From Candidatus Heimdallarchaeum aukensis (lineage in GTDB: Archaea > Asgardarchaeota > Heimdallarchaeia > Heimdallarchaeales > Heimdallarchaeaceae), in contig CP084166.1 of assembly GCA_021513695.1 (NCBI GenBank), positions 3,008,001 through 3,072,000 on the forward strand: 64,000 bases of DNA. Reading direction: 5' to 3'. Positions within the stretch are counted from its first letter, which is position 1; every line of letters starts with the position of its first letter. A program made the translations under genes and the position numbers. This document shows positions 16,927 to 46,880 of the stretch, piece by piece. The notes beneath the pieces were generated by a model, which was given only the letters and a program-made list of their open reading frames with translations, was not told the DNA's origin and made no database searches.

Positions 16927-16927
16927 G

Positions 16928-23221: not shown

Positions 23222-23234
23222 TCTTTTATTCCTC

Positions 23235-27105: not shown

Positions 27106-27108
27106 TTT

Positions 27109-27510
27109 CTAATAATCATCAAAGTCGTAAGGTATTAAATCTTCTCCATACTCTTTTTCTAGTTCTCTAAGTTGTGCTTCTTCATTTTCGTGATATAAAT
27201 CATGAAGGATTACTAAAGCTACTCCTGGAGGAGCTCCAATTAAAACACTTAATTCTCTGTAATCTATTCCTGGATTTTCTGGAATAATATTAGTTTGAAC
27301 ATAACCTTTTAAATTTGCATAGTTAGCTATACTTCTTACAGCATCGATTAGATCGTTGATTTTTCCTTGAAAGCCTGGAAAATTTACATGGTTTAGTTTA
27401 TATTGCTTTATTTTCTCTCTAAGTTTTCTTTTTTCTTCTTCTCTTCTTTTCCTAAGTTCTTTTATTTTTCTACCCCTATCTTCATCAATGAAATGAGTTA
27501 AATCGACCAT
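27109..27510 (-). CDS. Hypothetical protein with a Lys/Arg/Glu-rich N-terminal region
   Basis: An ORF only, convergent with the phosphoesterase. Confidence 0.35.
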   Translation of the reverse strand: MVDLTHFIDEDRGRKIKELRKRREEEKRKLREKIKQYKLNHVNFPGFQGKINDLIDAVRSIANYANLKGYVQTNIIPENPGIDYRELSVLIGAPPGVALVILHDLYHENEEAQLRELEKEYGEDLIPYDFDDY

Positions 27511-27615
27511 TTTTTTACCCCAGCTATTTCCGACGCTCTAAGTTATAAATCGATAATAATAAAAAAAGTTATGTATTGAATTTTTTTCTGAAAGTGAAAC
27601 TTTTTCAGAATGTAA

Positions 27616-29115: not shown

Positions 29116-29154
29116 AGTTTTTTTTTTAAAAAAAGTATTAATATGTTTTTTGTG

Positions 29155-30387: not shown

Positions 30388-30441
30388 TTATTATCTTCCC
30401 GTTTCAAAGAAAATACAGTTGTATTTATTTTTTCCTACAAA

Positions 30442-31134
30442 ATGCATAAGTGCAGATATAAAAAAATTCAAATTTTGTGTTTAATTTTGAACATAATGCT
30501 AATAATTTTTGATTTAGATGGAACATTAGTTCAGAGTAATATTCTTTACTCTACAATAAAAAGTGAACTTAAAGACTTGCTAAAAAGTATAATTGGTGAA
30601 GAATTATATTCTGAATTTGTTTCAATTCCAAGGTCAATTTTAGAAATATTAACCTTTATCTCAAAACATGATAATTCTGGCTTTTACAGCAAAAAAGCAT
30701 GGGAGATAGTAGAAAAATACGAGATTAAAGGATATGAACATGCTACGATTCATGATGATGTTCTACCTACATTGAAGATTCTTAAAGAAAAGGGAGCAAC
30801 TATTGCTATTTTAACAAATAATTCAAAGAAATTAACAGACTTTGCGATGAAACAGTTTAATTTGAATAAGTACATTGATTATGTTGTAACTAGAGACGAT
30901 GTTGAAAAGGTTAAACCTGATCCTGAGGGCATTTATAAAATAATGAAAAAATTCAACAAAGATAAAGAAGAAACTCTTTTTATAGGCGACTCATGGTTAG
31001 ATGCTGAGTCTGCTTTTAATGCAGGAGTAAAGTTTGCTTACTTTGGAAAAGCAAATGAGGAGACAAGAGAAAAAAAGATACCAGCTAAAATTGAAATAAA
31101 CTCTATTAGTGAAGTCTTAAATTTAAGTTTTTGA
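30442..31134 (+). CDS. HAD-superfamily phosphatase
   Basis: IIFDLDGTLV motif I and the GDSWLD motif. Confidence 0.75.
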   Translation: MHKCRYKKIQILCLILNIMLIIFDLDGTLVQSNILYSTIKSELKDLLKSIIGEELYSEFVSIPRSILEILTFISKHDNSGFYSKKAWEIVEKYEIKGYEHATIHDDVLPTLKILKEKGATIAILTNNSKKLTDFAMKQFNLNKYIDYVVTRDDVEKVKPDPEGIYKIMKKFNKDKEETLFIGDSWLDAESAFNAGVKFAYFGKANEETREKKIPAKIEINSISEVLNLSF

Positions 31135-31183
31135 ACTTTTGACTATCCTTTTAAAAACAAATAAATAGTACTTTGAGATTAGT

Positions 31184-32992
31184 TTGTTGATTGAAATGAA
31201 ACTTAGATTAATGTTTAGAGGAATTCTAACACTTACATTTTTGTGGGGATTAGTATTCGGATTAGTTTTAGCTATTGAAGCAGTTGTATATCTTTCAACA
31301 GATGGTTCAGTTACAGCTGCAGTATTATTCACTTATCTCCCAGTTGTAATCACTCTAGGAATTGTTTTTCTGCAATTTTTACTTTCACCATTCTTTATGG
31401 ATTTGAACCTTCGTTGGTTATATAAAATGACTTGGATTAAGCCACAACAGCTTCCTCCCCATTTGGCCAAATTCATTGCTGAACAAGAAGCAAAACACGG
31501 TATATCAATCAAAAAGGTTGGAATGATTCATGACCAAAATCCCCAAGCTTTTACATATGGCCATTTCAAAAAGAATGCTCGTATAGTTCTTTCTGATGGA
31601 ATACTAAATCTTCTTACTCCAGAAGAACAAGTTGCAGTAGTTGGGCATGAACTTGGACATATTGCTCACATGGATTTCTTATTCATGACAATAGCTGCTG
31701 CTGCTCCTGTTATTCTCTACACTTTTTATGCTTTTTCAAGAGGAGTTCTAAGAACAATGCGATATACTTCTAAAAGTGGAGGAAAAGATTCAGGAAAAAC
31801 TGCTGCAGCTATAGGTCTCACAGCTTTTGTTTTTATGATTATAAGCTATTTGTTTTATATCATTAGTCAATTCTTAGTTCTCTTTTTAAGCAGAATACGT
31901 GAATACTATGCAGATAGTTTTTCCGCTGAAAACACTGAGAATCCTAAAGGTTTGTCGACAGCTTTAGTTAAAATAGCTTATGGAATGGTTCAAAGTCAAG
32001 CTGCCTATGCAGCACAAATGAATGACAAATCTGCTTCAATGAAGGGTAGAGTTAAAGCTTCTCAACGTTTTGGTTTTACAAACGCTGTTCGCAGTATGAA
32101 TATCTTTGATGTCAAAGCAGCTCAAGGTTTAGTCATGTCTGCTTATGCTCAAACAGCTACTGCTGAAATAGAACCTGAGATGGTTGTTCGTGCTGCAGCT
32201 TGGGATTTAGAAAGTCCATGGGCTACTTTTCTTGAACTTCAAAGTACACATCCACTTGCAGCTAAAAGGTTACTGGCATTGGACGACATTGCTGAAGAAA
32301 TGGGATTAAAACGCGCTTATCCAACTTTAGGAACTGATAAGATTCATGAAACTCTCTGGGATGAATTCTTAGTAGATGTATTTGTTTATTATGTTGTTCC
32401 TTCTTTATTGTTTATTCTTCCAGCATTAGGTTATCTAGTTATTATTGCTGAGATTAATCCACTTATTGGTGTAGGAGGAGGATTAGCTTTAGCTGCATTG
32501 TTGTGGTTATGGAGAATTAAAATTCGATATCCAAGAATCTCTCCTGATCTACTTCCAATTAACATTATGGATGCTGTTACAGATGTTTCCGATAATGGAT
32601 ATGCCGAGGCATCACCCGTCAGAGGAAAACCAATTAAACTTGAAGGTTTAATAATCGGAAGAGGACAAGCAGGTTACTACTTCAGTGAAGATATGGTTCT
32701 ACAAGATTCAACAGGAATTATTACTTTAGATTACAATCCGGTCTTCAATTTCATGAGATGGATAACAGCTTTGTTCCGTGTTGAAAAGTTGATTGGAACT
32801 AGAGTAGTAGTTTTAGGTTGGTACAGACGTTCACCAAAGCCATATGTGATGATAAAAAAGATGATCAAACCTGATGGAAGATCGATAGGTAGCAATTGGG
32901 ATATAGCTAACTGGATGCTTGTTTTTGCTCTCCTTATAGGTGCAGTAATTTTTGCAGTTTTTGGTTTTGGAATGCCAGTTTTAGGTTTATGA
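31184..32992 (+). CDS. Membrane-embedded M48-family zinc metalloprotease (HtpX/Ste24-like) with an extended C-terminal region
   Basis: HELGHIAH (HExxH) between TM helices, a downstream glutamate motif (YYADSF), and multiple TM segments. Confidence 0.65.
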   Translation: MLIEMKLRLMFRGILTLTFLWGLVFGLVLAIEAVVYLSTDGSVTAAVLFTYLPVVITLGIVFLQFLLSPFFMDLNLRWLYKMTWIKPQQLPPHLAKFIAEQEAKHGISIKKVGMIHDQNPQAFTYGHFKKNARIVLSDGILNLLTPEEQVAVVGHELGHIAHMDFLFMTIAAAAPVILYTFYAFSRGVLRTMRYTSKSGGKDSGKTAAAIGLTAFVFMIISYLFYIISQFLVLFLSRIREYYADSFSAENTENPKGLSTALVKIAYGMVQSQAAYAAQMNDKSASMKGRVKASQRFGFTNAVRSMNIFDVKAAQGLVMSAYAQTATAEIEPEMVVRAAAWDLESPWATFLELQSTHPLAAKRLLALDDIAEEMGLKRAYPTLGTDKIHETLWDEFLVDVFVYYVVPSLLFILPALGYLVIIAEINPLIGVGGGLALAALLWLWRIKIRYPRISPDLLPINIMDAVTDVSDNGYAEASPVRGKPIKLEGLIIGRGQAGYYFSEDMVLQDSTGIITLDYNPVFNFMRWITALFRVEKLIGTRVVVLGWYRRSPKPYVMIKKMIKPDGRSIGSNWDIANWMLVFALLIGAVIFAVFGFGMPVLGL

Positions 32993-33122
32993 ATAATATA
33001 ATCCTCTTTTTTTTTATTTTCTTTTTTTTGAAGTTTTTAAAGAATAATCAAATTAAGTTAGCACAAATAACAGCAAAGTTAAATATGACTACCTTTGAGA
33101 ATAAAGTAAGATTGGTGAGATT

Positions 33123-34079
33123 ATGTCTGAGGATGAACAAAAAACTCAAGTTGAAGAAGAGAAAACTGAGGTAAAAGAAGAAAAAGAAGAAACTCCCTTG
33201 GAAATGTACCAAAAAGCTGGAAAAGTAGCTCACGAAATTCTTCAAACACTTAAAGATATGGCTAAACCCGGAGTTAAAGCTCTAGATTTAAGTGAAAAAG
33301 CAGATGCAATGATAGCTGAAGCAGGAATGAAACCTGCATTTCCTCTAAATATAGCAATAAACAATCATGCTGCTCATTACACTTGTCCTTGGGAAGATGA
33401 TTTGATTCTTCAAGAGGGAGATGTAGTAAAAATTGATGTTGGTGTTCATTATAAAGGTTTTATTGCAGATACAGCTTTAACTGTTGCTTTTGATGATGTC
33501 CATAATGATTTAATTAAAGCAAGTAAAGAAGCAACTGAAACAGCCGTAAAAGTTATACGTGTAGGAAATTATACTGGTAAATTAGGAGATCTAATTGAAA
33601 ATATTATTGAAGGATACGGCTTCTCAACAGTAAAAGACTTGTCAGGCCATTTGCTTATGCCTTATCTTGTTCATGGTCCAAAAACTATTCCAAATGTAAG
33701 TGGAAGAAAAGGTAACTTGATTTTACAAGATGAAGCTTATGCTATTGAAACCTTCGCAACAACAGGTGCAGGAGAATCAAAACCAGATAAAACAAAGTTA
33801 TATATTGTAAGGTTAGCAGAAGGAAGATTTCCACTAAGAACAAGAGCTGCAAAAGATGTTAGAAATCTTCTAGATAGAGAATATCATAGAATGCCTGTAG
33901 CAACAAGATGGATATATAAGGCCCTTGGTCCTGCTAAGGCAAAAATGGGTATTAGAGAATTAATTAATGTGGGAGCTTTATATCAATATCATGTGCTTTC
34001 TGATACTTCTGGATCTTTTGTATCACAGCATGAGCATACAGTTTACATGACAGAAGAAGGGCCAGTACAAACTACATAA
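33123..34079 (+). CDS. map: Methionine aminopeptidase type 2 with an acidic/Lys-rich N-terminal extension (copy 1)
   Basis: Pita-bread fold motifs (HAAHYTCP, DVGVHYKGFIADTA, SGHLL, IETFATTGAG). N-terminal MSEDEQKTQVEEEKTEVKEEKEE extension. Confidence 0.9.
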   Translation: MSEDEQKTQVEEEKTEVKEEKEETPLEMYQKAGKVAHEILQTLKDMAKPGVKALDLSEKADAMIAEAGMKPAFPLNIAINNHAAHYTCPWEDDLILQEGDVVKIDVGVHYKGFIADTALTVAFDDVHNDLIKASKEATETAVKVIRVGNYTGKLGDLIENIIEGYGFSTVKDLSGHLLMPYLVHGPKTIPNVSGRKGNLILQDEAYAIETFATTGAGESKPDKTKLYIVRLAEGRFPLRTRAAKDVRNLLDREYHRMPVATRWIYKALGPAKAKMGIRELINVGALYQYHVLSDTSGSFVSQHEHTVYMTEEGPVQTT

Positions 34080-34209
34080 TCCTTTTTTTATTTTACTGTT
34101 TATTTTTTGTTTTGAGAATAGTAATTTTGTATTTTCATTTAAAAAAATCATTTTTTAAGAACAATAAATCTTTAATATTGAAAAGTTGTAAATGAATGTG
34201 TTGATATAA

Positions 34210-35432
34210 TTGACTTTACAGACAAGTGAATTCAAATTTATAATGTATGAACCATGTTTTAATAATTACGATATTGTGTATAACGAATATATGCTGGCTT
34301 ATGAAGAATTTAAGAAACTAGGAGAAGAGATGTCAATTTTCGCGTTCTCTCTTACTTCTATGAAGGAATGCTCTATCTTATTAATGGTGACAAATTCTTT
34401 TCTCAGAAGGAATACAAAAAAGCAAATGAAAACTATGAAGAAGCACAAAAATTAATTACTCGCTCTAGAGCATCAAGAGGAATTGAAAAAGATACTATCT
34501 GGCAAGAAATGGTTAAATGGATAGCATATTGCGAATCTTATACTAATCTTTCCAAGAGTTATTTAGTCAAAGATTTCTCAGAAAAAATTGAACTATTAAA
34601 GAAAAGCAAGGCAGCAATTAAAGATTTTGTAGAAAAAAGGAAATATGATGAAAACATCATCTTGGATATCTATGCAAAAGCTAAAGAAAATTATATCAAG
34701 TACATTTATTACATAAATTTAGCTCAAAAATATGAGAAAAACACAAGAATGCAGAAAAAAATACTCCTTAAAGCGAGAAGAAAGCTACTTTTAGCTCACT
34801 TTATTCTTAATCACTATGAAGAAGAAATAGATGATTTAGACTTTAAAATTGATGAGCTAACAAAGACACACATAGTTGAAAGAGCAGAAATGTACTGGAA
34901 CAAGGGAACTTTACTAATTTCTCAAAGTGACTTTATGAGTGCACACAAATATCTTCTTCTAGCTTCTCAGTACTATGAACGAGCAAGCAAAATATGTTCA
35001 GAATTTATTGAATTAAGATTATATTTAGCTCTTAGTAAAATAACAGAAAGTAGCGGTCTTGAAGCAAAAGCTAATGAACTTTACAGAAGGCAGGACAAGC
35101 CCCTAGAAGCCAGTAAACTGTTTGAAGAAGCATATGAAGTTGTAGACGAATCCCTCGGTTTACTAGCTACAATTCACAATGAAGTGTTAATAAACAATAT
35201 GACTGCACAAAGATCTTATTATGAAGCTTTAGCACTCGAAGCAAAAGGTATATCCCTCTTTGACGAAGAGAAATATAAAGAATCTATAGAAATTTTTGAA
35301 CAATCAATGCAAAAATTAGAAGAAACAGAACGCTTAGTAGTCGAAGGTAGTTCAGAGCATTTACAAGAGTACATTCGCTTAGCTAAGAATGAGATTGAAG
35401 GTTATTTATCTATGGCAAAAACTATGCTTTAG
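34210..35432 (+). pseudogene. Frameshifted copy of the 407-aa alpha-helical (TPR-like) protein gene. It is split into 81-aa and 354-aa ORFs by a 1-nt deletion near 34330
   Basis: Copy 2 (39065-40288) reads ggagaagagaatgtc. Copy 1 reads ggagaagagatgtc, which shifts the frame. Confidence 0.55.
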
Positions 35433-35490
35433 TATCAAATTTTTCTTCAATCAATAATCTTTATTTATCACAATATAAACAATAAATGCA

Positions 35491-36186
35491 ATGCTGTTTG
35501 ACGATTTTGAAATAAAGGAGTACTTGGAAAATTTTTTCTCAAAGAATCTATCTGCCAAAGATTATCCTGAACCCGACACTGATCTCGATCATAAATTAGT
35601 TTGGAATTACAGTGAAAATGGAGATGCTTTTTCAGTACTTCTTGATCCAATAAATGATGCTTACGAATACTTTGGAGTTACTGTAGGTGAGATATTTGCT
35701 CACCATCGATTCAAACCAATTGTTTGGCACTTGTATCTTTTTGGCAATAAAATAAAGAGCTTTGAATGGATTAAATTAAAAGATGGAACTGATTATCTTA
35801 TTAATGTTGGGACTTACTCTTTTATTTCTTATATCTACGATTTTAAAAGTGGGAAAAGGTTATACAGAAACCCAATAGAAGAGATAAAATCTCAAATATA
35901 TTCACTTAACCTCAAGTATGATATATCTGTAAATGATGTAAATGAATTTGTAGAATATTCTTTTATTGAAGACTACAGGTGGGGAGAAGTTTCGAGAAAC
36001 GCTATAATAGCTCTTATACTAGATAATTTCAATAAAGATAAAATAAATGTTAATGTTCTAGGATTAATTAATCGTGTTTTACACGAATATTCTAATTACG
36101 AATCAGACAAACAACTACTAGAAAGAGTGAAAAAAGGAGAATCACCTTTTGAACTAGGGACTATCTTTTATAACGATTTTATATAA
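35491..36186 (+). CDS. Hypothetical protein (231 aa), copy 1
   Basis: An ORF identical to 40347-41042. Confidence 0.45.
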   Translation: MLFDDFEIKEYLENFFSKNLSAKDYPEPDTDLDHKLVWNYSENGDAFSVLLDPINDAYEYFGVTVGEIFAHHRFKPIVWHLYLFGNKIKSFEWIKLKDGTDYLINVGTYSFISYIYDFKSGKRLYRNPIEEIKSQIYSLNLKYDISVNDVNEFVEYSFIEDYRWGEVSRNAIIALILDNFNKDKINVNVLGLINRVLHEYSNYESDKQLLERVKKGESPFELGTIFYNDFI

Positions 36187-36199
36187 AAAGAGAAAAAAT

Positions 36200-36499
36200 T
36201 TAACTCATTTTAAATTCTACACCGAATCCTCCATGAGGATAGTGCCAATCAACACTTCCGTGAGGACAAACAAGCCTACATGTTCCACATTCAACACAAG
36301 GTGCATAATCAAACGTTACAGGTACATCTCCATCTTCAACTAGTTTATAACATTCTGCAGGGCAACCATATACACAGTCATATGTCTTACATTTAGTTTT
36401 GCATATCTCCTCGTTTATGGTAATGTGAGCAAAATTTTTGTCTGTAACATACTTTGTTAATGCAAGTTTTTCTTCAATTTTTATTGGATTTTCTACCAT
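36200..36499 (-). CDS. fixX: Ferredoxin-like protein FixX (copy 1)
   Basis: CVECGTCRLVCPHGSV 4Fe-4S-like motif, ~99 aa, immediately downstream of fixC. Confidence 0.8.
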   Translation of the reverse strand: MVENPIKIEEKLALTKYVTDKNFAHITINEEICKTKCKTYDCVYGCPAECYKLVEDGDVPVTFDYAPCVECGTCRLVCPHGSVDWHYPHGGFGVEFKMS

Positions 36500-36511
36500 T
36501 CTTTTCTCCTC

Positions 36512-37825
36512 CTAAATAGATCTTAAAGCAGCAAAAGCATCTCCCATGAGCTTAAACAGCTTACCTTTCTTTAGGAAGTGCTTAATAGCTGTAGGAACAA
36601 TTCTTTTTCTAGGCTCTCCAGTGTTGTGTAAAAGTTGATACATCAAAGAATTAAGCAGTTCTGGATAAACATTGAAAATTCTCTCTCTCTCCAAGAACTT
36701 TGCAGCTCGTTTAAATCTCTTCAAATCTTGCAAAACAAAACTATCTCGCAATAATTTCAAATAAATCTTTGTTCCTTCTGCAGAATAATCATTTGTTGTT
36801 AAAGCTTCTTTTGCTGCTAACCCTGCTAGTCTTCCAGACTCTAAAGCAAAATTCATACCTTCTATGTACAAACCTGCGTTAAGAACCATACCAGCAGCAT
36901 CACCAGCAATCATCACACCGTTCCCATATAACTTAGGCATGTGTTTGTATCCCCCTTCAGGAATAGCGTGAGCAGAGTATTCAACCATTTTAGCATCTTT
37001 AAGGAGCTTTTGGATGTAGGGGTGTTTCTTAAAATCTTCAAAAGCATCAATCGCTCTGATCTTTTTTTGTATAAGTTTTTTCATGTTTAAGATCAATCCA
37101 AAAGAAAGTGTTTCTTTATTTGTATAGAAGAATCCTCCTCCTGGAATTCCATGAGTATAACCTAGAAACTCGTTACTTATTCCTTCATTTCCATTAAGAT
37201 GAAATCTCTCTTCAATTATTTCTTTCTTTAATTCATATGTTTCTTTCATTCCTACAGCGTAGTGTGAAGGTGAAGGCTTTTTAGCAAGTTTAGCTTTTTC
37301 TGCTAATAAAGTAACAGCTCCTTCAGCAATTATAGTGAGTTTAGCTTTTAATTCATCTTCTCCAGATTCTATTCCTATAATTTGATTATCCTTCCAAATG
37401 AAATCTTCAGCTACAGTGTTGTCGAGAATAAAAGCTCCTGCTTCTTCTGCTTTTTGGGCCAACCATCTGTCAAATTTTGGACGAATAACAGTTACACCAT
37501 TGTAAGGTGGTTCGGCAAAATCTTGTAAATCAATATCAATAGTCATTGCTCGCTTTTCAGACAAAAGAGTAATCTTTTTAGTTGTTAAATATCTCTCAAT
37601 AGCATCTTCTTCCCAATAGTTAGGAACGATTTTATTTAGTACTGGGCCGTAAAGAGCTCCTCCACTTACATTTTTTGCACCAGGATACTGTCCTCTTTCA
37701 ATAATAGCAACCTCTTTTCCTTCCTTTGCTAAAGTTAATGCTGCAGAAGAACCAGCTAGTCCAGCTCCAACTATAATTACATCAAAATCGTATTCTACAG
37801 TCATAAAAAAATGTTTGATTTTCAA
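36512..37825 (-). CDS. fixC: FAD-dependent oxidoreductase FixC (ETF-quinone oxidoreductase-like), copy 1
   Basis: DVIIVGAGLAGSSAAL Rossmann motif; ~437 aa, FixC-like. Confidence 0.85.
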   Translation of the reverse strand: MKIKHFFMTVEYDFDVIIVGAGLAGSSAALTLAKEGKEVAIIERGQYPGAKNVSGGALYGPVLNKIVPNYWEEDAIERYLTTKKITLLSEKRAMTIDIDLQDFAEPPYNGVTVIRPKFDRWLAQKAEEAGAFILDNTVAEDFIWKDNQIIGIESGEDELKAKLTIIAEGAVTLLAEKAKLAKKPSPSHYAVGMKETYELKKEIIEERFHLNGNEGISNEFLGYTHGIPGGGFFYTNKETLSFGLILNMKKLIQKKIRAIDAFEDFKKHPYIQKLLKDAKMVEYSAHAIPEGGYKHMPKLYGNGVMIAGDAAGMVLNAGLYIEGMNFALESGRLAGLAAKEALTTNDYSAEGTKIYLKLLRDSFVLQDLKRFKRAAKFLERERIFNVYPELLNSLMYQLLHNTGEPRKRIVPTAIKHFLKKGKLFKLMGDAFAALRSI

Positions 37826-37977
37826 TATAAAATGTTTATGTGAAAATATAAAAAAGAAAATAGAAAAGAATGAAAAATTATTTTATCTTTTTTAAAGAAT
37901 AATCAAATTAAGTTAGCACAAATAACAGCAAAGTTAAATATGACTACCTTTGAGAATAAAGTAAGATTGGTGAGATT

Positions 37978-38934
37978 ATGTCTGAGGATGAACAAAAAAC
38001 TCAAGTTGAAGAAGAGAAAACTGAGGTAAAAGAAGAAAAAGAAGAAACTCCCTTGGAAATGTACCAAAAAGCTGGAAAAGTAGCTCACGAAATTCTTCAA
38101 ACACTTAAAGATATGGCTAAACCCGGAGTTAAAGCTCTAGATTTAAGTGAAAAAGCAGATGCAATGATAGCTGAAGCAGGAATGAAACCTGCATTTCCTC
38201 TAAATATAGCAATAAACAATCATGCTGCTCATTACACTTGTCCTTGGGAAGATGATTTGATTCTTCAAGAGGGAGATGTAGTAAAAATTGATGTTGGTGT
38301 TCATTATAAAGGTTTTATTGCAGATACAGCTTTAACTGTTGCTTTTGATGATGTCCATAATGATTTAATTAAAGCAAGTAAAGAAGCAACTGAAACAGCC
38401 GTAAAAGTTATACGTGTAGGAAATTATACTGGTAAATTAGGAGATCTAATTGAAAATATTATTGAAGGATACGGCTTCTCAACAGTAAAAGACTTGTCAG
38501 GCCATTTGCTTATGCCTTATCTTGTTCATGGTCCAAAAACTATTCCAAATGTAAGTGGAAGAAAAGGTAACTTGATTTTACAAGATGAAGCTTATGCTAT
38601 TGAAACCTTCGCAACAACAGGTGCAGGAGAATCAAAACCAGATAAAACAAAGTTATATATTGTAAGGTTAGCAGAAGGAAGATTTCCACTAAGAACAAGA
38701 GCTGCAAAAGATGTTAGAAATCTTCTAGATAGAGAATATCATAGAATGCCTGTAGCAACAAGATGGATATATAAGGCCCTTGGTCCTGCTAAGGCAAAAA
38801 TGGGTATTAGAGAATTAATTAATGTGGGAGCTTTATATCAATATCATGTGCTTTCTGATACTTCTGGATCTTTTGTATCACAGCATGAGCATACAGTTTA
38901 CATGACAGAAGAAGGGCCAGTACAAACTACATAA
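37978..38934 (+). CDS. map: Methionine aminopeptidase type 2 (copy 2)
   Basis: Identical to 33123-34079. Confidence 0.9.
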   Translation: MSEDEQKTQVEEEKTEVKEEKEETPLEMYQKAGKVAHEILQTLKDMAKPGVKALDLSEKADAMIAEAGMKPAFPLNIAINNHAAHYTCPWEDDLILQEGDVVKIDVGVHYKGFIADTALTVAFDDVHNDLIKASKEATETAVKVIRVGNYTGKLGDLIENIIEGYGFSTVKDLSGHLLMPYLVHGPKTIPNVSGRKGNLILQDEAYAIETFATTGAGESKPDKTKLYIVRLAEGRFPLRTRAAKDVRNLLDREYHRMPVATRWIYKALGPAKAKMGIRELINVGALYQYHVLSDTSGSFVSQHEHTVYMTEEGPVQTT

Positions 38935-39064
38935 TCCTTTTTTTATTTTACTGTTTATTTTTTGTTTTGAGAATAGTAATTTTGTATTTTCATTTAAAAA
39001 AATCATTTTTTAAGAACAATAAATCTTTAATATTGAAAAGTTGTAAATGAATGTGTTGATATAA

Positions 39065-40288
39065 TTGACTTTACAGACAAGTGAATTCAAATTTATAATG
39101 TATGAACCATGTTTTAATAATTACGATATTGTGTATAACGAATATATGCTGGCTTATGAAGAATTTAAGAAACTAGGAGAAGAGAATGTCAATTTTCGCG
39201 TTCTCTCTTACTTCTATGAAGGAATGCTCTATCTTATTAATGGTGACAAATTCTTTTCTCAGAAGGAATACAAAAAAGCAAATGAAAACTATGAAGAAGC
39301 ACAAAAATTAATTACTCGCTCTAGAGCATCAAGAGGAATTGAAAAAGATACTATCTGGCAAGAAATGGTTAAATGGATAGCATATTGCGAATCTTATACT
39401 AATCTTTCCAAGAGTTATTTAGTCAAAGATTTCTCAGAAAAAATTGAACTATTAAAGAAAAGCAAGGCAGCAATTAAAGATTTTGTAGAAAAAAGGAAAT
39501 ATGATGAAAACATCATCTTGGATATCTATGCAAAAGCTAAAGAAAATTATATCAAGTACATTTATTACATAAATTTAGCTCAAAAATATGAGAAAAACAC
39601 AAGAATGCAGAAAAAAATACTCCTTAAAGCGAGAAGAAAGCTACTTTTAGCTCACTTTATTCTTAATCACTATGAAGAAGAAATAGATGATTTAGACTTT
39701 AAAATTGATGAGCTAACAAAGACACACATAGTTGAAAGAGCAGAAATGTACTGGAACAAGGGAACTTTACTAATTTCTCAAAGTGACTTTATGAGTGCAC
39801 ACAAATATCTTCTTCTAGCTTCTCAGTACTATGAACGAGCAAGCAAAATATGTTCAGAATTTATTGAATTAAGATTATATTTAGCTCTTAGTAAAATAAC
39901 AGAAAGTAGCGGTCTTGAAGCAAAAGCTAATGAACTTTACAGAAGGCAGGACAAGCCCCTAGAAGCCAGTAAACTGTTTGAAGAAGCATATGAAGTTGTA
40001 GACGAATCCCTCGGTTTACTAGCTACAATTCACAATGAAGTGTTAATAAACAATATGACTGCACAAAGATCTTATTATGAAGCTTTAGCACTCGAAGCAA
40101 AAGGTATATCCCTCTTTGACGAAGAGAAATATAAAGAATCTATAGAAATTTTTGAACAATCAATGCAAAAATTAGAAGAAACAGAACGCTTAGTAGTCGA
40201 AGGTAGTTCAGAGCATTTACAAGAGTACATTCGCTTAGCTAAGAATGAGATTGAAGGTTATTTATCTATGGCAAAAACTATGCTTTAG
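39065..40288 (+). CDS. Alpha-helical repeat (TPR-like) protein, 407 aa, intact copy
   Basis: Uninterrupted ORF; all-helical and Lys/Glu-rich. No family recognised. Confidence 0.5.
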   Translation: MTLQTSEFKFIMYEPCFNNYDIVYNEYMLAYEEFKKLGEENVNFRVLSYFYEGMLYLINGDKFFSQKEYKKANENYEEAQKLITRSRASRGIEKDTIWQEMVKWIAYCESYTNLSKSYLVKDFSEKIELLKKSKAAIKDFVEKRKYDENIILDIYAKAKENYIKYIYYINLAQKYEKNTRMQKKILLKARRKLLLAHFILNHYEEEIDDLDFKIDELTKTHIVERAEMYWNKGTLLISQSDFMSAHKYLLLASQYYERASKICSEFIELRLYLALSKITESSGLEAKANELYRRQDKPLEASKLFEEAYEVVDESLGLLATIHNEVLINNMTAQRSYYEALALEAKGISLFDEEKYKESIEIFEQSMQKLEETERLVVEGSSEHLQEYIRLAKNEIEGYLSMAKTML

Positions 40289-40346
40289 TATCAAATTTTT
40301 CTTCAATCAATAATCTTTATTTATCACAATATAAACAATAAATGCA

Positions 40347-41042
40347 ATGCTGTTTGACGATTTTGAAATAAAGGAGTACTTGGAAAATTTTTTCTCAAAG
40401 AATCTATCTGCCAAAGATTATCCTGAACCCGACACTGATCTCGATCATAAATTAGTTTGGAATTACAGTGAAAATGGAGATGCTTTTTCAGTACTTCTTG
40501 ATCCAATAAATGATGCTTACGAATACTTTGGAGTTACTGTAGGTGAGATATTTGCTCACCATCGATTCAAACCAATTGTTTGGCACTTGTATCTTTTTGG
40601 CAATAAAATAAAGAGCTTTGAATGGATTAAATTAAAAGATGGAACTGATTATCTTATTAATGTTGGGACTTACTCTTTTATTTCTTATATCTACGATTTT
40701 AAAAGTGGGAAAAGGTTATACAGAAACCCAATAGAAGAGATAAAATCTCAAATATATTCACTTAACCTCAAGTATGATATATCTGTAAATGATGTAAATG
40801 AATTTGTAGAATATTCTTTTATTGAAGACTACAGGTGGGGAGAAGTTTCGAGAAACGCTATAATAGCTCTTATACTAGATAATTTCAATAAAGATAAAAT
40901 AAATGTTAATGTTCTAGGATTAATTAATCGTGTTTTACACGAATATTCTAATTACGAATCAGACAAACAACTACTAGAAAGAGTGAAAAAAGGAGAATCA
41001 CCTTTTGAACTAGGGACTATCTTTTATAACGATTTTATATAA
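40347..41042 (+). CDS. Hypothetical protein (231 aa), copy 2
   Basis: Identical to copy 1. Confidence 0.45.
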   Translation: MLFDDFEIKEYLENFFSKNLSAKDYPEPDTDLDHKLVWNYSENGDAFSVLLDPINDAYEYFGVTVGEIFAHHRFKPIVWHLYLFGNKIKSFEWIKLKDGTDYLINVGTYSFISYIYDFKSGKRLYRNPIEEIKSQIYSLNLKYDISVNDVNEFVEYSFIEDYRWGEVSRNAIIALILDNFNKDKINVNVLGLINRVLHEYSNYESDKQLLERVKKGESPFELGTIFYNDFI

Positions 41043-41055
41043 AAAGAGAAAAAAT

Positions 41056-41355
41056 TTAACTCATTTTAAATTCTACACCGAATCCTCCATGAGGATAGTG
41101 CCAATCAACACTTCCGTGAGGACAAACAAGCCTACATGTTCCACATTCAACACAAGGTGCATAATCAAACGTTACAGGTACATCTCCATCTTCAACTAGT
41201 TTATAACATTCTGCAGGGCAACCATATACACAGTCATATGTCTTACATTTAGTTTTGCATATCTCCTCGTTTATGGTAATGTGAGCAAAATTTTTGTCTG
41301 TAACATACTTTGTTAATGCAAGTTTTTCTTCAATTTTTATTGGATTTTCTACCAT
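41056..41355 (-). CDS. fixX: Ferredoxin-like protein FixX (copy 2)
   Basis: Identical to copy 1. Adjacent to fixC and fixB. Confidence 0.8.
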   Translation of the reverse strand: MVENPIKIEEKLALTKYVTDKNFAHITINEEICKTKCKTYDCVYGCPAECYKLVEDGDVPVTFDYAPCVECGTCRLVCPHGSVDWHYPHGGFGVEFKMS

Positions 41356-41367
41356 TCTTTTCTCCTC

Positions 41368-42681
41368 CTAAATAGATCTTAAAGCAGCAAAAGCATCTCC
41401 CATGAGCTTAAACAGCTTACCTTTCTTTAGGAAGTGCTTAATAGCTGTAGGAACAATTCTTTTTCTAGGCTCTCCAGTGTTGTGTAAAAGTTGATACATC
41501 AAAGAATTAAGCAGTTCTGGATAAACATTGAAAATTCTCTCTCTCTCCAAGAACTTTGCAGCTCGTTTAAATCTCTTCAAATCTTGCAAAACAAAACTAT
41601 CTCGCAATAATTTCAAATAAATCTTTGTTCCTTCTGCAGAATAATCATTTGTTGTTAAAGCTTCTTTTGCTGCTAACCCTGCTAGTCTTCCAGACTCTAA
41701 AGCAAAATTCATACCTTCTATGTACAAACCTGCGTTAAGAACCATACCAGCAGCATCACCAGCAATCATCACACCGTTCCCATATAACTTAGGCATGTGT
41801 TTGTATCCCCCTTCAGGAATAGCGTGAGCAGAGTATTCAACCATTTTAGCATCTTTAAGGAGCTTTTGGATGTAGGGGTGTTTCTTAAAATCTTCAAAAG
41901 CATCAATCGCTCTGATCTTTTTTTGTATAAGTTTTTTCATGTTTAAGATCAATCCAAAAGAAAGTGTTTCTTTATTTGTATAGAAGAATCCTCCTCCTGG
42001 AATTCCATGAGTATAACCTAGAAACTCGTTACTTATTCCTTCATTTCCATTAAGATGAAATCTCTCTTCAATTATTTCTTTCTTTAATTCATATGTTTCT
42101 TTCATTCCTACAGCGTAGTGTGAAGGTGAAGGCTTTTTAGCAAGTTTAGCTTTTTCTGCTAATAAAGTAACAGCTCCTTCAGCAATTATAGTGAGTTTAG
42201 CTTTTAATTCATCTTCTCCAGATTCTATTCCTATAATTTGATTATCCTTCCAAATGAAATCTTCAGCTACAGTGTTGTCGAGAATAAAAGCTCCTGCTTC
42301 TTCTGCTTTTTGGGCCAACCATCTGTCAAATTTTGGACGAATAACAGTTACACCATTGTAAGGTGGTTCGGCAAAATCTTGTAAATCAATATCAATAGTC
42401 ATTGCTCGCTTTTCAGACAAAAGAGTAATCTTTTTAGTTGTTAAATATCTCTCAATAGCATCTTCTTCCCAATAGTTAGGAACGATTTTATTTAGTACTG
42501 GGCCGTAAAGAGCTCCTCCACTTACATTTTTTGCACCAGGATACTGTCCTCTTTCAATAATAGCAACCTCTTTTCCTTCCTTTGCTAAAGTTAATGCTGC
42601 AGAAGAACCAGCTAGTCCAGCTCCAACTATAATTACATCAAAATCGTATTCTACAGTCATAAAAAAATGTTTGATTTTCAA
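41368..42681 (-). CDS. fixC: FAD-dependent oxidoreductase FixC (copy 2)
   Basis: Identical to copy 1. Directly downstream of fixB. Confidence 0.85.
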   Translation of the reverse strand: MKIKHFFMTVEYDFDVIIVGAGLAGSSAALTLAKEGKEVAIIERGQYPGAKNVSGGALYGPVLNKIVPNYWEEDAIERYLTTKKITLLSEKRAMTIDIDLQDFAEPPYNGVTVIRPKFDRWLAQKAEEAGAFILDNTVAEDFIWKDNQIIGIESGEDELKAKLTIIAEGAVTLLAEKAKLAKKPSPSHYAVGMKETYELKKEIIEERFHLNGNEGISNEFLGYTHGIPGGGFFYTNKETLSFGLILNMKKLIQKKIRAIDAFEDFKKHPYIQKLLKDAKMVEYSAHAIPEGGYKHMPKLYGNGVMIAGDAAGMVLNAGLYIEGMNFALESGRLAGLAAKEALTTNDYSAEGTKIYLKLLRDSFVLQDLKRFKRAAKFLERERIFNVYPELLNSLMYQLLHNTGEPRKRIVPTAIKHFLKKGKLFKLMGDAFAALRSI

Positions 42682-42733
42682 TATAAAATGTTTATGTGAA
42701 AATATAAAAAAGAAAATAGAAAAGAATGAAAAA

Positions 42734-43708
42734 TTATTTTATCTTTTCTTTTAAAATAGGAAGAATTTGATGAAGATCTCCAACTATTCCATAATCACAA
42801 TATTTGAATATAGAAGCTCTTTCGTCAGTGTTTATTGCTATCAAGGTCTTGGCTTTAACTCCACAGATATGTTGAGGTGCACCACTAATTCCTGCGGCAA
42901 TATACAAATCAGGGGAAACTGACTGACCAGTTTGGCCTATTTCATAAGTTTCTTCTATCCAATGTAGATCTGTGCAGGCTCTTGTTGCACCCATTTCTCC
43001 TCCAAGCAAGTCAGCTAGTTCTTTAATAATAGCGAATTTGTCTTTTCCACCTACACCCCTTCCTCCAGCAACAATTATCTTTGCATCTTTAAGATTAACT
43101 GTCTTCTTCGCTTTAAGAATCTCTACACTTTTAACAATTCTATCTTTTTCATCGAATGAAACAGTTAATTTTTCTATTTCTGGTTCTTGTCCTTCTGGAT
43201 TCTCATCTATAAAGAAAGCTCCTGCACGAGTTGTGATGAATATTTTTTCTCCTTTAGATTTCATTTTTACCATAGCTTGGTCGTCTCTAACTGGAGTAAT
43301 AGCTATAAGATCATCACCCTCTAAAATCAAGTCAGTTACTCTTTCAAGACAAGTAGTGTTATAATGAACAGCTAATCTGGGAATGAGGTCTTCTACATTA
43401 ACTAGTCCTCCACCAATAACTACTTTAGGGTCAGCAGTTTTGATAATCTCTAACATAGCTTTTACATAAGCTCGAGAAAGGTAAGTGCTCAATTCAGGAG
43501 CTTCTACTACAAAGACTTTTTTAGCTCCGTGCTTACCTAAAGTGGAAATCCATTCATCTTTAGCTTGTTCACAGAGGAGAGCAGCAGAAACATCTCCTAA
43601 ACTAGTAAAGTTTTTGACTTTATTTAGAACTCCTAAAACGTTTTCTTCTATTTCTCCATCTCTGATTAAAGCAAAAACAAGTATTCCAGTCATTTTATGC
43701 ACCCCCAA
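42734..43708 (-). CDS. fixB: Electron transfer flavoprotein alpha subunit (FixB/EtfA)
   Basis: ETF alpha FAD-binding C-terminal domain motifs (IIVAGGRGV, YIAAGISGAPQH). Confidence 0.85.
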   Translation of the reverse strand: MGVHKMTGILVFALIRDGEIEENVLGVLNKVKNFTSLGDVSAALLCEQAKDEWISTLGKHGAKKVFVVEAPELSTYLSRAYVKAMLEIIKTADPKVVIGGGLVNVEDLIPRLAVHYNTTCLERVTDLILEGDDLIAITPVRDDQAMVKMKSKGEKIFITTRAGAFFIDENPEGQEPEIEKLTVSFDEKDRIVKSVEILKAKKTVNLKDAKIIVAGGRGVGGKDKFAIIKELADLLGGEMGATRACTDLHWIEETYEIGQTGQSVSPDLYIAAGISGAPQHICGVKAKTLIAINTDERASIFKYCDYGIVGDLHQILPILKEKIK

Positions 43709-44510
43709 GTTTAATACCGTCTTCTTTCATCTTCTCAAGAAGCTTGTCAACCATTTCCTCAGGTTCGCCTTCTGAAATAATGAAGCTTTCTTTCTCAATG
43801 ACAATATTCTCCAATGAAAGAACCTCTAGATCAGAGATGTCTTGTCCTACATCATTAGCAGAAAGACCTAAATCTTCAAGTGTCCATGCAGGTATTTGAG
43901 CTCTTTTCGACATCATAATTCCACGCATTGAGGTATAACGAGGAATAAAATACTCAGAGTCAGAAATACTGAACAAAGACTTACCTAAAGGAACTTGAAC
44001 AATCTCTTTTCCTCCTTCTAGCACTCTAGAAACAATAAAGGCATCATCCTTCTTTTCAAGTTTTTCAACATAAAGAACAGAAGGAATATCTAAAAGCTCT
44101 GCAAGTATAGGCGCTTCAGCGTAGGATGAAGTAGGCATTACTTGTCCACCAATCATAACTAAATCATACTCTCCAATTTTCTCAAGAACTTTATGGTAAA
44201 CTTTAGCCATAATAAGAGGGTCATGACTAAAAATGTCTTTAGAATTGACAACAATTCCAGAGTTACAACCCATGGCTATTGCTTCTCTAACTGCTTTCTC
44301 AGGCTTCAAATCTCCAACACAAACAGCAGTTACAGTTGCTCCTTCACTGTCTTTGAATTTTAAAGCTCCTTCAATGGCGTTCTTGTCAATAGGGTTGATT
44401 ATAAGATCATCAGCATTAATTTTTGATTCATCAAAATAGTCTATTCCCTCAAGATTGACCTGAGGATCAAGAATCTGACGTATAAACACAACGATATTCA
44501 TATTAATCAA
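43695..44510 (-). CDS. fixA: Electron transfer flavoprotein beta subunit (FixA/EtfB)
   Basis: ETF beta fold; overlaps fixB by 14 nt. Confidence 0.85.
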   Translation of the reverse strand: MINMNIVVFIRQILDPQVNLEGIDYFDESKINADDLIINPIDKNAIEGALKFKDSEGATVTAVCVGDLKPEKAVREAIAMGCNSGIVVNSKDIFSHDPLIMAKVYHKVLEKIGEYDLVMIGGQVMPTSSYAEAPILAELLDIPSVLYVEKLEKKDDAFIVSRVLEGGKEIVQVPLGKSLFSISDSEYFIPRYTSMRGIMMSKRAQIPAWTLEDLGLSANDVGQDISDLEVLSLENIVIEKESFIISEGEPEEMVDKLLEKMKEDGIKLGGA

Positions 44511-44737
44511 AAAATGAACAAATAAGAATTACAAAAATCTTTCTCTCCGTTAATTTCAGCAAAAGTGAAAAAAGTACCTTTATAAGCTGAAAAATCTTTT
44601 AAAACTAATAGAATAGAAGAGACAATAAATTTTCATTGTTTAAATTACAATTTTTTATAGCATTCTTTCTTTATTGTTCTTTGTTAAATATATTTAGTAA
44701 ATCTTTTTAAATTGAAAGAATAGTTCTCTTAGATTTT

Positions 44738-45793
44738 ATGAATATCGACAGAAATGAAATTATAAAGATGCAAGAAAAGCTAAGCAATCTTATTGGTTGC
44801 CCAGGGCATGAAGAAGAAGTTGCAGAATTCATATTATCACAATTAAATGATTGTGTAGATCGAGCTTGGATTGACCCTCTTGGTAACGTATTAGCTATTA
44901 AAAAAGGAACAGTAGAAAATGGTATGAAAATTCTTTTAGATGCTCACATGGATGAAGTAGGATTTATGATTTCGCACATTGAAGAAAAAGGTTTTCTAAG
45001 AATTGCTCCACTTGGTGGAATAGATAAAAGAGTTATGCTTGGCTCTTTACTTCAATTTCAGACAGATAACAATGAAAAAATAGTTGGGATAGTTGGCTCT
45101 CATCCTCCTCATATAACAAAAAGTGAAGAAAGAGAAAGAGTTCCTGAAATATCAGAAATGTTTGTTGACATTGGTTACCAATCGCGAGAAGAAGTACTAG
45201 CAAAAGGATTACATGTAGGAAGTGTTGGAACTTTCTATACCAAATTTGAACAATTAGATGATGAAACTGTAATAGGTAAAGCATTTGATGATAGAACAGC
45301 TTGTAATGTCTTGTTACAAGTTTTAAAAGCTCTTAAAGATGTCGAGCATCCCCATACAATTTTAGCAGTATTTGCAGTGCAAGAAGAAGTAGGAGGAAGA
45401 GGAGCGACAGTAGGAGCTTTTGAACTTCAACCTACAATGGCTTTAGCTTTAGAAAATACTATCGCAAGTGACGTGGTAGGAGTCCCCACTAACAAAGTAG
45501 TTACAAGTATTGGAAAGGGACCAGCAGTAACTGCTGCTGATAGATCACTAATAACACCAAAAAAAGTCCTAAATCGTATTAAACAAGCCGCAGAAAAAGA
45601 TGACATTAAAACACAGTATAAAATGCCCATTTTTGGAGGATCAGATGGAGGAAGAATAGCTATCACTCGATCTGGAGTACCAACAGGTGTGGTTAGTGTT
45701 CCCTGTCGATATATTCACGGGCCTGTAGCTATGTTAAAAATAAAAGATATAGAAGAAACTATAAAACTAGTTTACAACTTTTGCACAATTTAA
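44738..45793 (+). CDS. M42-family aminopeptidase (TET/FrvX-like)
   Basis: LLDAHMDEVGFMI, plus the conserved DDR and EEVG motifs. Confidence 0.85.
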   Translation: MNIDRNEIIKMQEKLSNLIGCPGHEEEVAEFILSQLNDCVDRAWIDPLGNVLAIKKGTVENGMKILLDAHMDEVGFMISHIEEKGFLRIAPLGGIDKRVMLGSLLQFQTDNNEKIVGIVGSHPPHITKSEERERVPEISEMFVDIGYQSREEVLAKGLHVGSVGTFYTKFEQLDDETVIGKAFDDRTACNVLLQVLKALKDVEHPHTILAVFAVQEEVGGRGATVGAFELQPTMALALENTIASDVVGVPTNKVVTSIGKGPAVTAADRSLITPKKVLNRIKQAAEKDDIKTQYKMPIFGGSDGGRIAITRSGVPTGVVSVPCRYIHGPVAMLKIKDIEETIKLVYNFCTI

Positions 45794-45825
45794 AGAAAAA
45801 GTAAAAATTTCTTTTTCTTTTTTTC

Positions 45826-46392
45826 TTATTTATACAATTCTAAATATTCATCAAACAGGATATCCATTAGAATTATGTCATAGTATTTGCCTTCATGAAA
45901 GCGAGCCTTTCTTCTTCTACCAATGTGTTTGAAACCTAATTTCTCATAAACGTGGACAGCTCGTTTATTAAACTCAAAAACCTCGAGTTCTATTCTGTTT
46001 AAGTTGAGAATAAGAAAACCAAATTTCAAAATACATTTTGTAGCATCAGAGCCATATCCTTTGTTATGATTAGCAGGATTGTGAATAGCTATTCCAAAAA
46101 CACAAGTCCTATTTATCCAGTCAATATTCATTAAAGAAACGCTACCAAGAAATTCATTTTTTTCCTTCTCGACAATAGCAAATGTGAAGGATGAACGACG
46201 ATTAGCATCACGATAAAGGCTTTGAATCCATTCTTCTTCTTGTGTTGAACTGTGTGGAATAGGATGACCAAGGTATTGCCTAGTTTCATAAGTATTCCAA
46301 TATTTCATTATGTCTTTAAGATCTGATTTTTCAACAGGTCGAAGTATAACTTTTTCACCTATGAATGGTGAACCAAAGTCTTTTGATGTCAT
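45826..46392 (-). CDS. GNAT-family N-acetyltransferase (RimJ/RimL-like)
   Basis: Acetyl-CoA binding motif region (GYGSDA) and a RimL-like N-terminal region. Confidence 0.8.
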   Translation of the reverse strand: MTSKDFGSPFIGEKVILRPVEKSDLKDIMKYWNTYETRQYLGHPIPHSSTQEEEWIQSLYRDANRRSSFTFAIVEKEKNEFLGSVSLMNIDWINRTCVFGIAIHNPANHNKGYGSDATKCILKFGFLILNLNRIELEVFEFNKRAVHVYEKLGFKHIGRRRKARFHEGKYYDIILMDILFDEYLELYK

Positions 46393-46529
46393 AATAGTCT
46401 GAAATTCTTCAAAGTTTAAAAATTTGTCTAATCAAACCTTATTTATAAACAATTACAGTTTAAAAAAAGAAAAAAAGAAAAAAAGTTATTTGATATGAGC
46501 TGGTCTATATCCAGCATGTGCAAGAATAC

Positions 46530-46880
46530 TTGTTGCTTTACCTATGATTTACTTTTTTACATAAAGTTTTTCGCACTCTGTCTTGCAAGAGAAAAAACTA
46601 AAGGAAGTTTAATCTCTTGAACTCAACCAAGCCATACAATGCCGTGAAGGGGTTGAGACAGACATCATACACGAATCGTGGGAATCATAAAGAAGAAAAG
46701 AGTTGTAAGTTCTTTTCTTCACTCCACGAGAGACAAAAAAGAAAGAATTACCCACTAAAAGAGAGAAGTAATTACTTTCCTTTTTGTCTACTGGGACTGC
46801 AACCAATGGCTGAGCCCTAGACAAACAGTGAAATGAGTGAGACTGTATTTCTGACCAGTGAGGTAATCGGTGATAGTATT
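46530..46880 (-). ncRNA. Putative omega-RNA (reRNA) of the TnpB element, overlapping the tnpB 3' end and extending downstream
   Basis: A conspicuously GC-rich, stop-codon-poor segment sits immediately 3' of tnpB on the minus strand. It explains the symmetric spurious ORFs on both strands at 46609-46824. Confidence 0.4.

Follow-up and report, generated by a model that had tools for sequence, protein, structure and literature searches.

A Probable Assembly Artifact, or at Best a Minority Variant: the 4.86 kb Tandem Duplication in the Closed Genome of Candidatus Heimdallarchaeum aukensis

Results

The window analyzed here is a 64,000-nucleotide stretch of the closed MAG of Candidatus Heimdallarchaeum aukensis. 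Self-BLAST of the whole window reveals one internal repeat only, a 4.86 kb unit that is present twice in head-to-tail orientation: positions 33034-37891 and 37889-42747 align over 4859 columns with 0 mismatches and 1 gap. A base-by-base walk fixes the limits of the repeat exactly, with its start at 33034 and its end at 42747. Copy 1 thus occupies 33034-37888 (4855 nt, without one A at 34331) and copy 2 occupies 37889-42747 (4859 nt, including a shared TTT). The original prediction of a near-perfect tandem duplication with a 1-nt indel is borne out by both analyses, and a repeat of this length and perfection cannot have arisen by chance. Scans of the whole window for tRNAs and Rfam families gave no matches.

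The first gene of the unit, on the plus strand, encodes a type II methionine aminopeptidase (MetAP; 33123-34079 in copy 1, UJG40821.1; 37978-38934 in copy 2, UJG40826.1), which scores 278.9 bits against TIGR00501, above the curated cut-off of 222.65. It is followed on the same strand by the gene for a TPR protein, described below, and by that for a 231-aa protein without a family match (hyp231; 35491-36186 and 40347-41042). A FixX-like ferredoxin (36200-36499 and 41056-41355) and a FixC-like FAD oxidoreductase (36512-37825 and 41368-42681) are encoded on the minus strand. The gene callers place the start of the FixC-like protein at 37804 and 42660, which yields 430 aa. The best matches of FixC and FixX lie below the NCBIfam cut-offs (359.8 bits against 610 and 70.9 against 166, respectively), and the Pfam ETFQO_UQ-bd and Fer4_ETF_QO domains in these proteins score above their gathering thresholds. 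Single-copy genes for ETF alpha (FixB; 42734-43693) and ETF beta (FixA; 43695-44501) lie to the right on the minus strand; the unit reaches into the 3' end of the ETF-alpha gene, to which its final 14 nt belong, and takes in the stop codon of that gene (42734-42736). The family matches agree with the genes first named at this locus, namely, metAP2, two unknown genes, and fixC-fixX beside a single fixA-fixB.

The base-by-base walk places the sole difference between the copies at 34331, where copy 1 reads GAGAGA-TG and copy 2 reads GAGAGAATG. This 1-nt deletion (AA to A, 34330-34331) is not silent. It shifts the frame of the plus-strand TPR gene, which in copy 1 (34210-35432) is split into ORFs of 81 aa and 354 aa and in copy 2 (39065-40288) is an intact 407-aa ORF. 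The 354-aa ORF of the deletion allele is recorded only as GenBank entry UJG40822.1, from the deposited assembly; none of the independent contigs in the gene-position index encodes it.

At the unit-unit junction, the in-register microhomology is 3 nt long: copy 1 runs on through TTT (37889-37891) into copy 2, and this novel junction connects the unit end (...TTATTTTATCT) to the unit start (TTTTTAAAGAATAATC). The left parental breakpoint is abutted on its left by a T-rich tract (33005-33033; T9 A T4 C T8 GAAG) at a site that is hypervariable among strains, and the right parental breakpoint is spanned by an imperfect 20-nt inverted repeat (42708-42752; 85% complementary, 5-nt loop). A mobile element can be rejected: the genes of the unit are all either housekeeping genes or unknown, none encodes an integrase or transposase, and terminal repeats are limited to TTT.

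The deposited genome was made by scaffolding metaSPAdes contigs of Illumina reads with Nanopore reads in LRScaf, followed by polishing with Pilon (PMC8813620). One DNA sample provided one Illumina paired-end run and two MinION runs (PMC8813620, Supplementary Table 6); both MinION runs used MDA-preamplified DNA, and one was also PCR-amplified (PMC8813620). LRScaf puts in Ns or merges contigs and does not fill gaps with read sequence, so both copies of the unit must be Illumina-contig sequence. None of the primers that the paper used in PCR and Sanger sequencing for end-joining and gap closure was located in the window, and the duplication is therefore neither the circularization join nor a Sanger-patched gap. 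No mention of the duplication was found in the literature searched.

We compared the window with the Logan assemblies of the project's runs, which are built from 31-mers, with singleton k-mers dropped, Minia3 simplification, and contigs of <150 bp unreported. Library types were assigned to SRR runs from error profiles and Supplementary Table 6 rather than from SRA metadata. The contigs of SRR15988954 (Illumina coverage ∼346×) are 100.000% identical to the window over 16.7 kb, which is Illumina-like, and they stop at graph branches, with neighbors overlapping by 30 nt. The contigs of SRR15988958 and SRR15988959 have 0 mismatches and 7, 7, and 1 single-base indels relative to the window; the positions of the indels were inspected in the two SRR15988958 contigs only, where almost all are in homopolymers, which is Nanopore-like.

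The two kinds of assembly represent the unit differently. In SRR15988954, an unbranched contig of 13,243 bp (L001) is identical to window positions 28494-33033, one unit, and 42748-46591 in succession (4540 + 4859 + 3844 = 13,243 bp). The Illumina-like graph thus has no surviving branch at the unit ends, although low-frequency junction k-mers would be cleaned away. In SRR15988958, one contig (L002) is exactly the 4859-nt maximal repeat, and copy 2 is identical both to this contig and to the single unit inside L001. The left-flank contig of SRR15988958 (L032) ends at 33063, the unit start plus 29, and so overlaps the unit by 30 nt (k-1). Searches of this run for a right-flank contig by way of ETF-alpha, ETF-beta, an M42 peptidase, and an acetyltransferase yielded none, a result probably due to disruption of those genes by homopolymer errors. 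Hence, the k-1 overlap is seen at the left end only, and the right end is given by the exact end of L002.

Because the SRR15988958 graph breaks exactly at both unit ends, sequenced molecules that bear the junction, amplified or native, must exist. Pure invention by the scaffolder, with the junction in no real molecule, can be eliminated on the same grounds. Nanopore miscalls in the T runs at the boundaries can likewise be rejected as the cause of the branches, since the unit contig remained unbroken at >130 other homopolymers (≥4 nt) within it. Homopolymer errors were also counted as an indirect measure of whether the unit has extra coverage in this run; 0 were observed against ∼2.8 expected, which is not significant (P ∼0.06, our own estimate).

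The original prediction had proposed a search for the same locus in related genomes, and the duplication does not recur there. Two strains with 98% identity (L027 and L028) and the sister species PR6 each have one copy of the unit. The window is ∼89% identical to PR6, in agreement with the published ANI of 88%, and in PR6 unrelated genes occupy the fixCX position. The exact 34-nt junction sequence had 0 matches among JGI metagenome contigs; related populations there are single-copy, but they come from other samples. A search of metagenome contigs anchored on MetAP returned only 6 loci, which are distant or short and hence uninformative.

Discussion

We conclude that assembly most likely produced the second copy of the unit in the deposited genome and that this copy is at best a minority variant. 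The unbranched passage of L001 from flank through unit to flank, when taken with the single-copy relatives, indicates that the predominant chromosome has one unit, in the order M48 peptidase, MetAP-TPR-hyp231-fixX-fixC, ETF-alpha-ETF-beta. L001, the closely matching strains, and PR6 together disfavor a fixed duplication. The first description of the locus as a recent, unpurged segmental duplication is thus unlikely to hold as a fixed genomic event, and the likelier readings are the artifact and the population variant that it listed as options. The dosage gain of fixCX and MetAP that it suggested is unsupported for the bulk population.

We place the probability at about one half that the predominant chromosome carries one unit and that the second copy is an assembly product derived from an MDA chimera. 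Template switching by phi29 would have generated same-strand chimeric molecules with a unit-end to unit-start junction, linking two T-rich sites 4.86 kb apart that have TTT in common, the right-hand site lying inside the hairpin. LRScaf may then have accepted the chimeric link and joined two contigs that each bore the unit. In this scenario, the base missing from copy 1 would be a residual or polishing error, shielded by the better alignment of short reads to the intact copy.

Several observations are consistent with this sequence of events. An independent assembly of the project's short reads gives one copy with contiguous flanks, and the scaffolding of short-read contigs with error-prone or chimeric long reads is a route able to create a false duplication (PMC8813620). 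The long-read template was phi29-amplified in both MinION runs. MDA chimeras include direct (same-strand) types, arise within a molecule at sites that are usually <10 kb apart and share a short overlap, and can be present in as many as 72-76% of long reads. The strand and the 4.86 kb spacing fit this description; however, the direct type is a minority, and at 3 nt the overlap falls short of the usual 5-8 nt. A lone random event would also be too rare to survive cleaning of the SRR15988958 graph, so a very early or recurrent origin is needed. Two Illumina-quality copies with exact boundaries imply, moreover, that the metaSPAdes graph itself branched at the unit ends, which suggests junction k-mers in the unamplified Illumina reads, whereas a pure MDA chimera predicts none. 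Finally, use of the same graph edge twice should give identical copies, yet a 1-nt difference is present.

It is possible, at what we judge to be clearly less than even odds, that the tandem duplication is genuine and sub-clonal, with ∼10-33% of cells in the ethane/sulfate enrichment carrying unit-unit and the junction real in native DNA. It would have arisen by microhomology-mediated illegitimate recombination or by replication template switching between T-rich intergenic sites, with one TPR copy frameshifted afterward and the minority structure promoted by the pipeline into the "complete" genome. Bacterial populations are well known to harbor unstable tandem duplications at low frequency, and the TTT microhomology and the breakpoint hairpin suit template switching in vivo equally well. 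A minority structure would account for the unit-bounded contigs in the metaSPAdes graph as well as for the junction in the Nanopore-run graph and offers a natural source of two alleles at 34331. Junction k-mers at 10-25% of unit coverage would be kept by metaSPAdes and removed by Minia as a low-coverage connection. The permitted frequency range is narrow, however, and amplification bias is still required for the junction to be kept in the Nanopore graph but not in the Illumina graph, where no branch survives. Neither the junction nor the deletion allele occurs in an independent contig.

Fixation of a genuine duplication in the sequenced population, which would double MetAP, hyp231, and fixCX and leave one TPR copy decaying, is in our view unlikely. 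The deposited, Pilon-polished closed genome does contain two head-to-tail copies, both annotated; a difference of one indel is as expected after a real event, and one run has the junction in its graph. Fixation predicts, however, that junction k-mers have half the depth of the unit, equal to the flanks. In the SRR15988954 graph, each end of the unit should then be a branch point, and a contig such as L001 (13,243 bp) would be impossible. This run otherwise matches the assembly perfectly and does break at real branches. The junction lacks support in these independent, unamplified data of the same organism, as judged from graph topology rather than from reads, and all relatives are single-copy.

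The least probable of the explanations is a 4.86 kb circle outside the chromosome, either excised from it or released from a rare duplication, which MDA would have turned into unit-unit concatemer reads by rolling-circle amplification. Such a circle would yield the same junction, MDA strongly favors small circles, and the unit is its own contig in SRR15988958. However, neither terminal repeats nor genes for an integrase, a transposase, or replication occur in the unit; 3-nt homology could not support site-specific or homologous excision; and the unit cuts through the 3' end of ETF-alpha, where an element would not naturally end.

The main value of these results is in quality control, as a caution on the GenBank record. 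One of the few closed Asgard genomes, which is widely used as a reference, probably holds a 4.86 kb false or non-consensus duplication. As a consequence, the record would contain five spurious genes (UJG40821-40823 versus UJG40826-40828 among them) and a truncated TPR protein that is likewise spurious; paralogue counts would be too high, and a second fixCX pair would seem to exist. The biological interest of the duplication itself is low, and tandem duplication at microhomology is a well-known prokaryotic process whichever reading holds. Were the minority variant true, it would offer a direct, if modest, glimpse of segmental duplication in progress in a Heimdallarchaeum population, with one TPR copy already inactivated, and this in an Asgard archaeon, a lineage whose gene duplications have a central place in ideas on the origin of eukaryotes.

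Comparison with Known Systems

The cargo of the unit resembles the FixABCX, or ETF plus ETF-quinone-oxidoreductase-like, electron-bifurcating module in that ETF-beta, ETF-alpha, FixC-like, and FixX-like genes stand in one minus-strand row, an arrangement that holds for copy 2 and for the single-copy contigs. This likeness concerns the cargo and not the duplication, and the FixC and FixX matches fall under the curated NCBIfam cut-offs.

The duplication itself invites three comparisons. False duplications in hybrid or scaffolded assemblies arise when repeat-bearing or overlapping contigs are joined end to end on long-read links. Our case shares with them the near-identical head-to-tail copies, a short-read assembly that is single-copy and unbranched, and the use of Illumina contigs with a long-read scaffolder. 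It differs in its clean join with a 3-nt overlap, without an N gap or an overlap of k-mer length, and in that the same boundaries are branch points in an independently built graph of a long-read run; the junction was therefore present in some sequenced molecules and is not the scaffolder's invention. The direct chimeras made by phi29 in MDA are matched by the MDA-preamplified long-read DNA, the same-strand arrangement, the 4.86 kb spacing (<10 kb), the short overlap, and the hairpin and T-tracts at the breakpoints. On the other hand, direct chimeras are the less frequent type, the overlap here is shorter than usual, and the junction is abundant enough to shape a graph. Spontaneous tandem duplications in prokaryotes are likewise head to tail, with a microhomology junction in intergenic AT-rich DNA and near-zero divergence, and the apparent presence of the junction in just part of the data is what a sub-clonal event would give; here, in contrast, the majority genotype is single-copy, and the case is known from graph topology rather than from reads or depth.

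Structure and Gene Content of the Repeat

The deposited 64 kb window contains only one internal repeat, for which self-BLAST aligns 33034-37891 with 37889-42747 over 4859 columns with 0 mismatches and 1 gap. In a base-by-base walk, identity begins at 33034 and stops at 42747, with copy 1 (33034-37888) extending 3 nt (TTT) into copy 2 (37889-42747); a separate repeat search gave copy offsets of 4855/4856 nt, in agreement with self-BLAST. The sole difference is an A absent at 34331, where copy 1 reads GAGAGA-TG and copy 2 reads GAGAGAATG. The two approaches therefore agree on two collinear copies, identical save one 1-nt indel, as the original prediction had described, and the self-comparison proposed there returns this repeat. 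The window (31.8% G+C) has 0 Ns, and in G+C content the unit (32.0%) does not stand apart from its flanks (32.7% and 33.3%). A DegV-family tandem array at 14037-16926, with three consecutive genes (299, 302, and 296 aa) of only 29-39% amino-acid identity, is old and diverged, unlike the perfect 4.86 kb repeat.

Each unit encodes a type II methionine aminopeptidase (MetAP; TIGR00501, score above the curated cutoff), a TPR protein, a 231-aa protein without a family match (hyp231), and, on the minus strand, FixX-like and FixC-like proteins with Pfam ETF-QO domains, whose top NCBIfam matches, FixX and FixC, both fall under the curated cutoffs. A single ETF-alpha/ETF-beta pair lies directly right of the unit, and the ETF-beta-ETF-alpha-fixC-fixX row is unbroken in copy 2. 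ORF and domain annotation confirms the anticipated cargo of MetAP, two unknown genes, and fixC-fixX beside a single fixA-fixB. The indel splits the copy 1 TPR gene into 81-aa and 354-aa ORFs; the copy 2 ORF is whole (407 aa). The GenBank record of Ca. H. aukensis (3,081,793 bp) annotates both copies, and exact protein look-up recovered MetAP (UJG40821.1 and UJG40826.1), the TPR protein (UJG40822.1, 354 aa and truncated, and UJG40827.1), and the 231-aa protein (UJG40823.1 and UJG40828.1).

The final 14 nt of the unit are the ETF-alpha 3' end, which places the right breakpoint within the last codons of that gene. An imperfect 20-nt inverted repeat (42708-42752) between ETF-alpha and fixC overlaps this breakpoint and is possibly an ETF-alpha terminator or an intercistronic hairpin. 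The left breakpoint is immediately preceded by a T9-A-T4-C-T8 tract. The intergenic stretch here (33026-33045) is hypervariable among strains otherwise 98-100% identical, reading GAAGTTTTTAAAG in the window versus AGATGTTATCGTAAT in L027 and L028, two JGI metagenome contigs of close strains.

Copy Number in Independent Assemblies

Window-identical sequence was found in the Logan assemblies of three runs from the sequencing project (SRR15988954, SRR15988958, and SRR15988959). Logan uses 31-mers with singletons removed and Minia3 graph simplification, holds each 31-mer once per accession, and leaves contigs <150 bp unreported. In SRR15988954, contig L045 matches 11816-28523 at 100.000% identity, gap-free, and overlaps its neighbor L001 by exactly 30 nt, so that the contigs of this run end at graph branches, not coverage gaps. 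L001 (13,243 bp) comprises 28494-33033, one unit with the intact TPR allele, and 42748-46591, and the segment lengths (4540 + 4859 + 3844) sum to 13,243 exactly. A de Bruijn graph is unable to display two copies of the unit. A junction at flank-like depth would give the last 30-mer of the unit two successors and its first 30-mer two predecessors; L001 would therefore be impossible. One copy is thus established as the majority genotype.

Contigs L032 and L048 (SRR15988958) and L049 (SRR15988959) show 0 mismatches and 7, 7, and 1 single-base indels, respectively; in L032 and L048, the two inspected, almost all indels lie within homopolymers and some disrupt genes, which is the Nanopore error signature. 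Together with Supplementary Table 6, the error profiles suggest, as the simplest assignment, that SRR15988954 is the Illumina run and the other two are MinION runs. Genes split in this way in long-read Logan contigs include an FGGY kinase and a HAD hydrolase, and proteins predicted from such assemblies are unreliable. In SRR15988958, L002 coincides exactly with the 4859-nt maximal repeat, and L032, the left-flank contig, stops at 33063, exactly 30 nt inside the unit. Breaks at both boundaries imply that, in the reads, the unit has one further predecessor and one further successor, that is, the unit-to-unit junction (37889-37891), whose expected contig of ~57 nt is under the Logan reporting length. 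Random Nanopore noise is ruled out as the cause, as >130 further homopolymer runs (at least 4 nt) within the unit leave the contig unbroken. The presence of junction-bearing molecules in the long-read data, which were MDA-amplified, is thereby established.

Comparison with Relatives

The original prediction had pointed to related genomes, and there the duplication is not seen: L027 and L028 (~98% identical) carry ETF-unit-M48 in single copy, and the sister species PR6 (Ca. H. endolithica) has MetAP-TPR-hyp231 in one copy. No genome in the species collection is closer than PR6, at ~89% DNA identity, in agreement with the published 88% ANI (PMC8813620). Remoter Heimdall-group MAGs have only HAD-M48-MetAP in common, and the junction 34-mer had no match in JGI metagenome contigs. 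A single copy is the ancestral and common state.

PR6 lacks fixX-fixC between hyp231 and ETF-alpha (36200-37825 versus 13418-15380 of its contig L003) and has there two unrelated plus-strand genes, for a 188-aa secreted-type and a 437-aa membrane-anchored protein. To either side, DNA identity to the window is 89-92%, a pattern that resembles exchange of a cassette at this spot between the two Heimdallarchaeum species. Contigs L029 and L030 end 37-50 nt into fixX (41318/36462) and L050 and L051 just past hyp231; these ends, from several independent metagenomes, suggest that the hyp231/fixX edge is a boundary that varies between strains in nature. In JGI strains L027, L044, and L046, the M48 peptidase gene left of the unit is interrupted around an 81-nt segment present in the window (31938-32019), and gene calling splits it into two shorter ones (248 and 333 aa).

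Origin of the Second Copy

The source paper (Wu et al. 2022, PMC8813620) describes a metaSPAdes assembly of Illumina PE150 reads, joined into scaffolds by two LRScaf rounds on Nanopore reads and Pilon-polished at 346x, with one DNA sample as the source of all data. Both MinION runs used DNA preamplified by MDA owing to its scarcity, the high-yield run additionally with a PCR library (PMC8813620). The primers of both PCR/Sanger checks in that study were searched for in the window and do not occur there. LRScaf turns positive gaps into Ns and negative gaps into contig merging and never uses read sequence as fill; therefore, both copies must be Illumina-contig sequence.

The deletion allele at 34331 was sought in independent contigs, and none carries it. 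A duplicated copy may truly carry this allele, or the deletion may be an error beyond the reach of polishing: correct short reads align better to the intact copy, so a faulty site is starved of coverage, as is known to happen in repeats when polishing places each read only once.

Although the deposited record does contain the repeat, the consensus genome of the organism most likely does not, the hybrid pipeline having most likely converted a junction into a second copy. We assign a probability of about one half to phi29 template switching as the source of the junction molecules; during MDA, it would yield a direct chimera (a same-strand join) carrying the unit-to-unit junction. MDA chimeras are intramolecular, join sites mostly <10 kb apart with short overlap, and can affect as many as 72-76% of long reads. 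The breakpoints in T-tracts and a hairpin count in favor of this origin; the direct type is, however, a minority, an overlap of 3 nt is short, and one chimera must be abundant. Most weightily, an MDA-only junction leaves the unit-bounded metaSPAdes Illumina contigs unaccounted for. A real sub-clonal tandem duplication, a credible though less favored source, would account for these boundaries and possibly for the second allele at 34331. Junction k-mers at ~10-25% of unit coverage in Illumina reads would probably be kept by metaSPAdes and removed by Minia as a weak connection at default thresholds.

Fixation of the duplication in the sequenced population is difficult to square with L001 and is improbable; of the three options first offered, a copy-number gain, if fixed, is argued against by this single-copy, unbranched contig, and a population variant or an assembly artifact remain the candidates. 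Least likely of all is an excised circle overamplified by MDA; it would give the same junction, but the unit lacks element-like features. A real duplication would leave the fixABCX row whole in copy 2, cut copy 1 fixCX off from the fixAB promoter with just 73 nt of intergenic sequence ahead of fixC, and double MetAP and hyp231, together with their upstream 89 nt, beside one truncated TPR copy. Nothing observed suggests selection for dosage, and the proposed dosage gain of fixC-fixX and MetAP is not borne out for the bulk population. Biologically the finding is of little interest; its practical use is as a warning about a reference genome for Asgard archaea.
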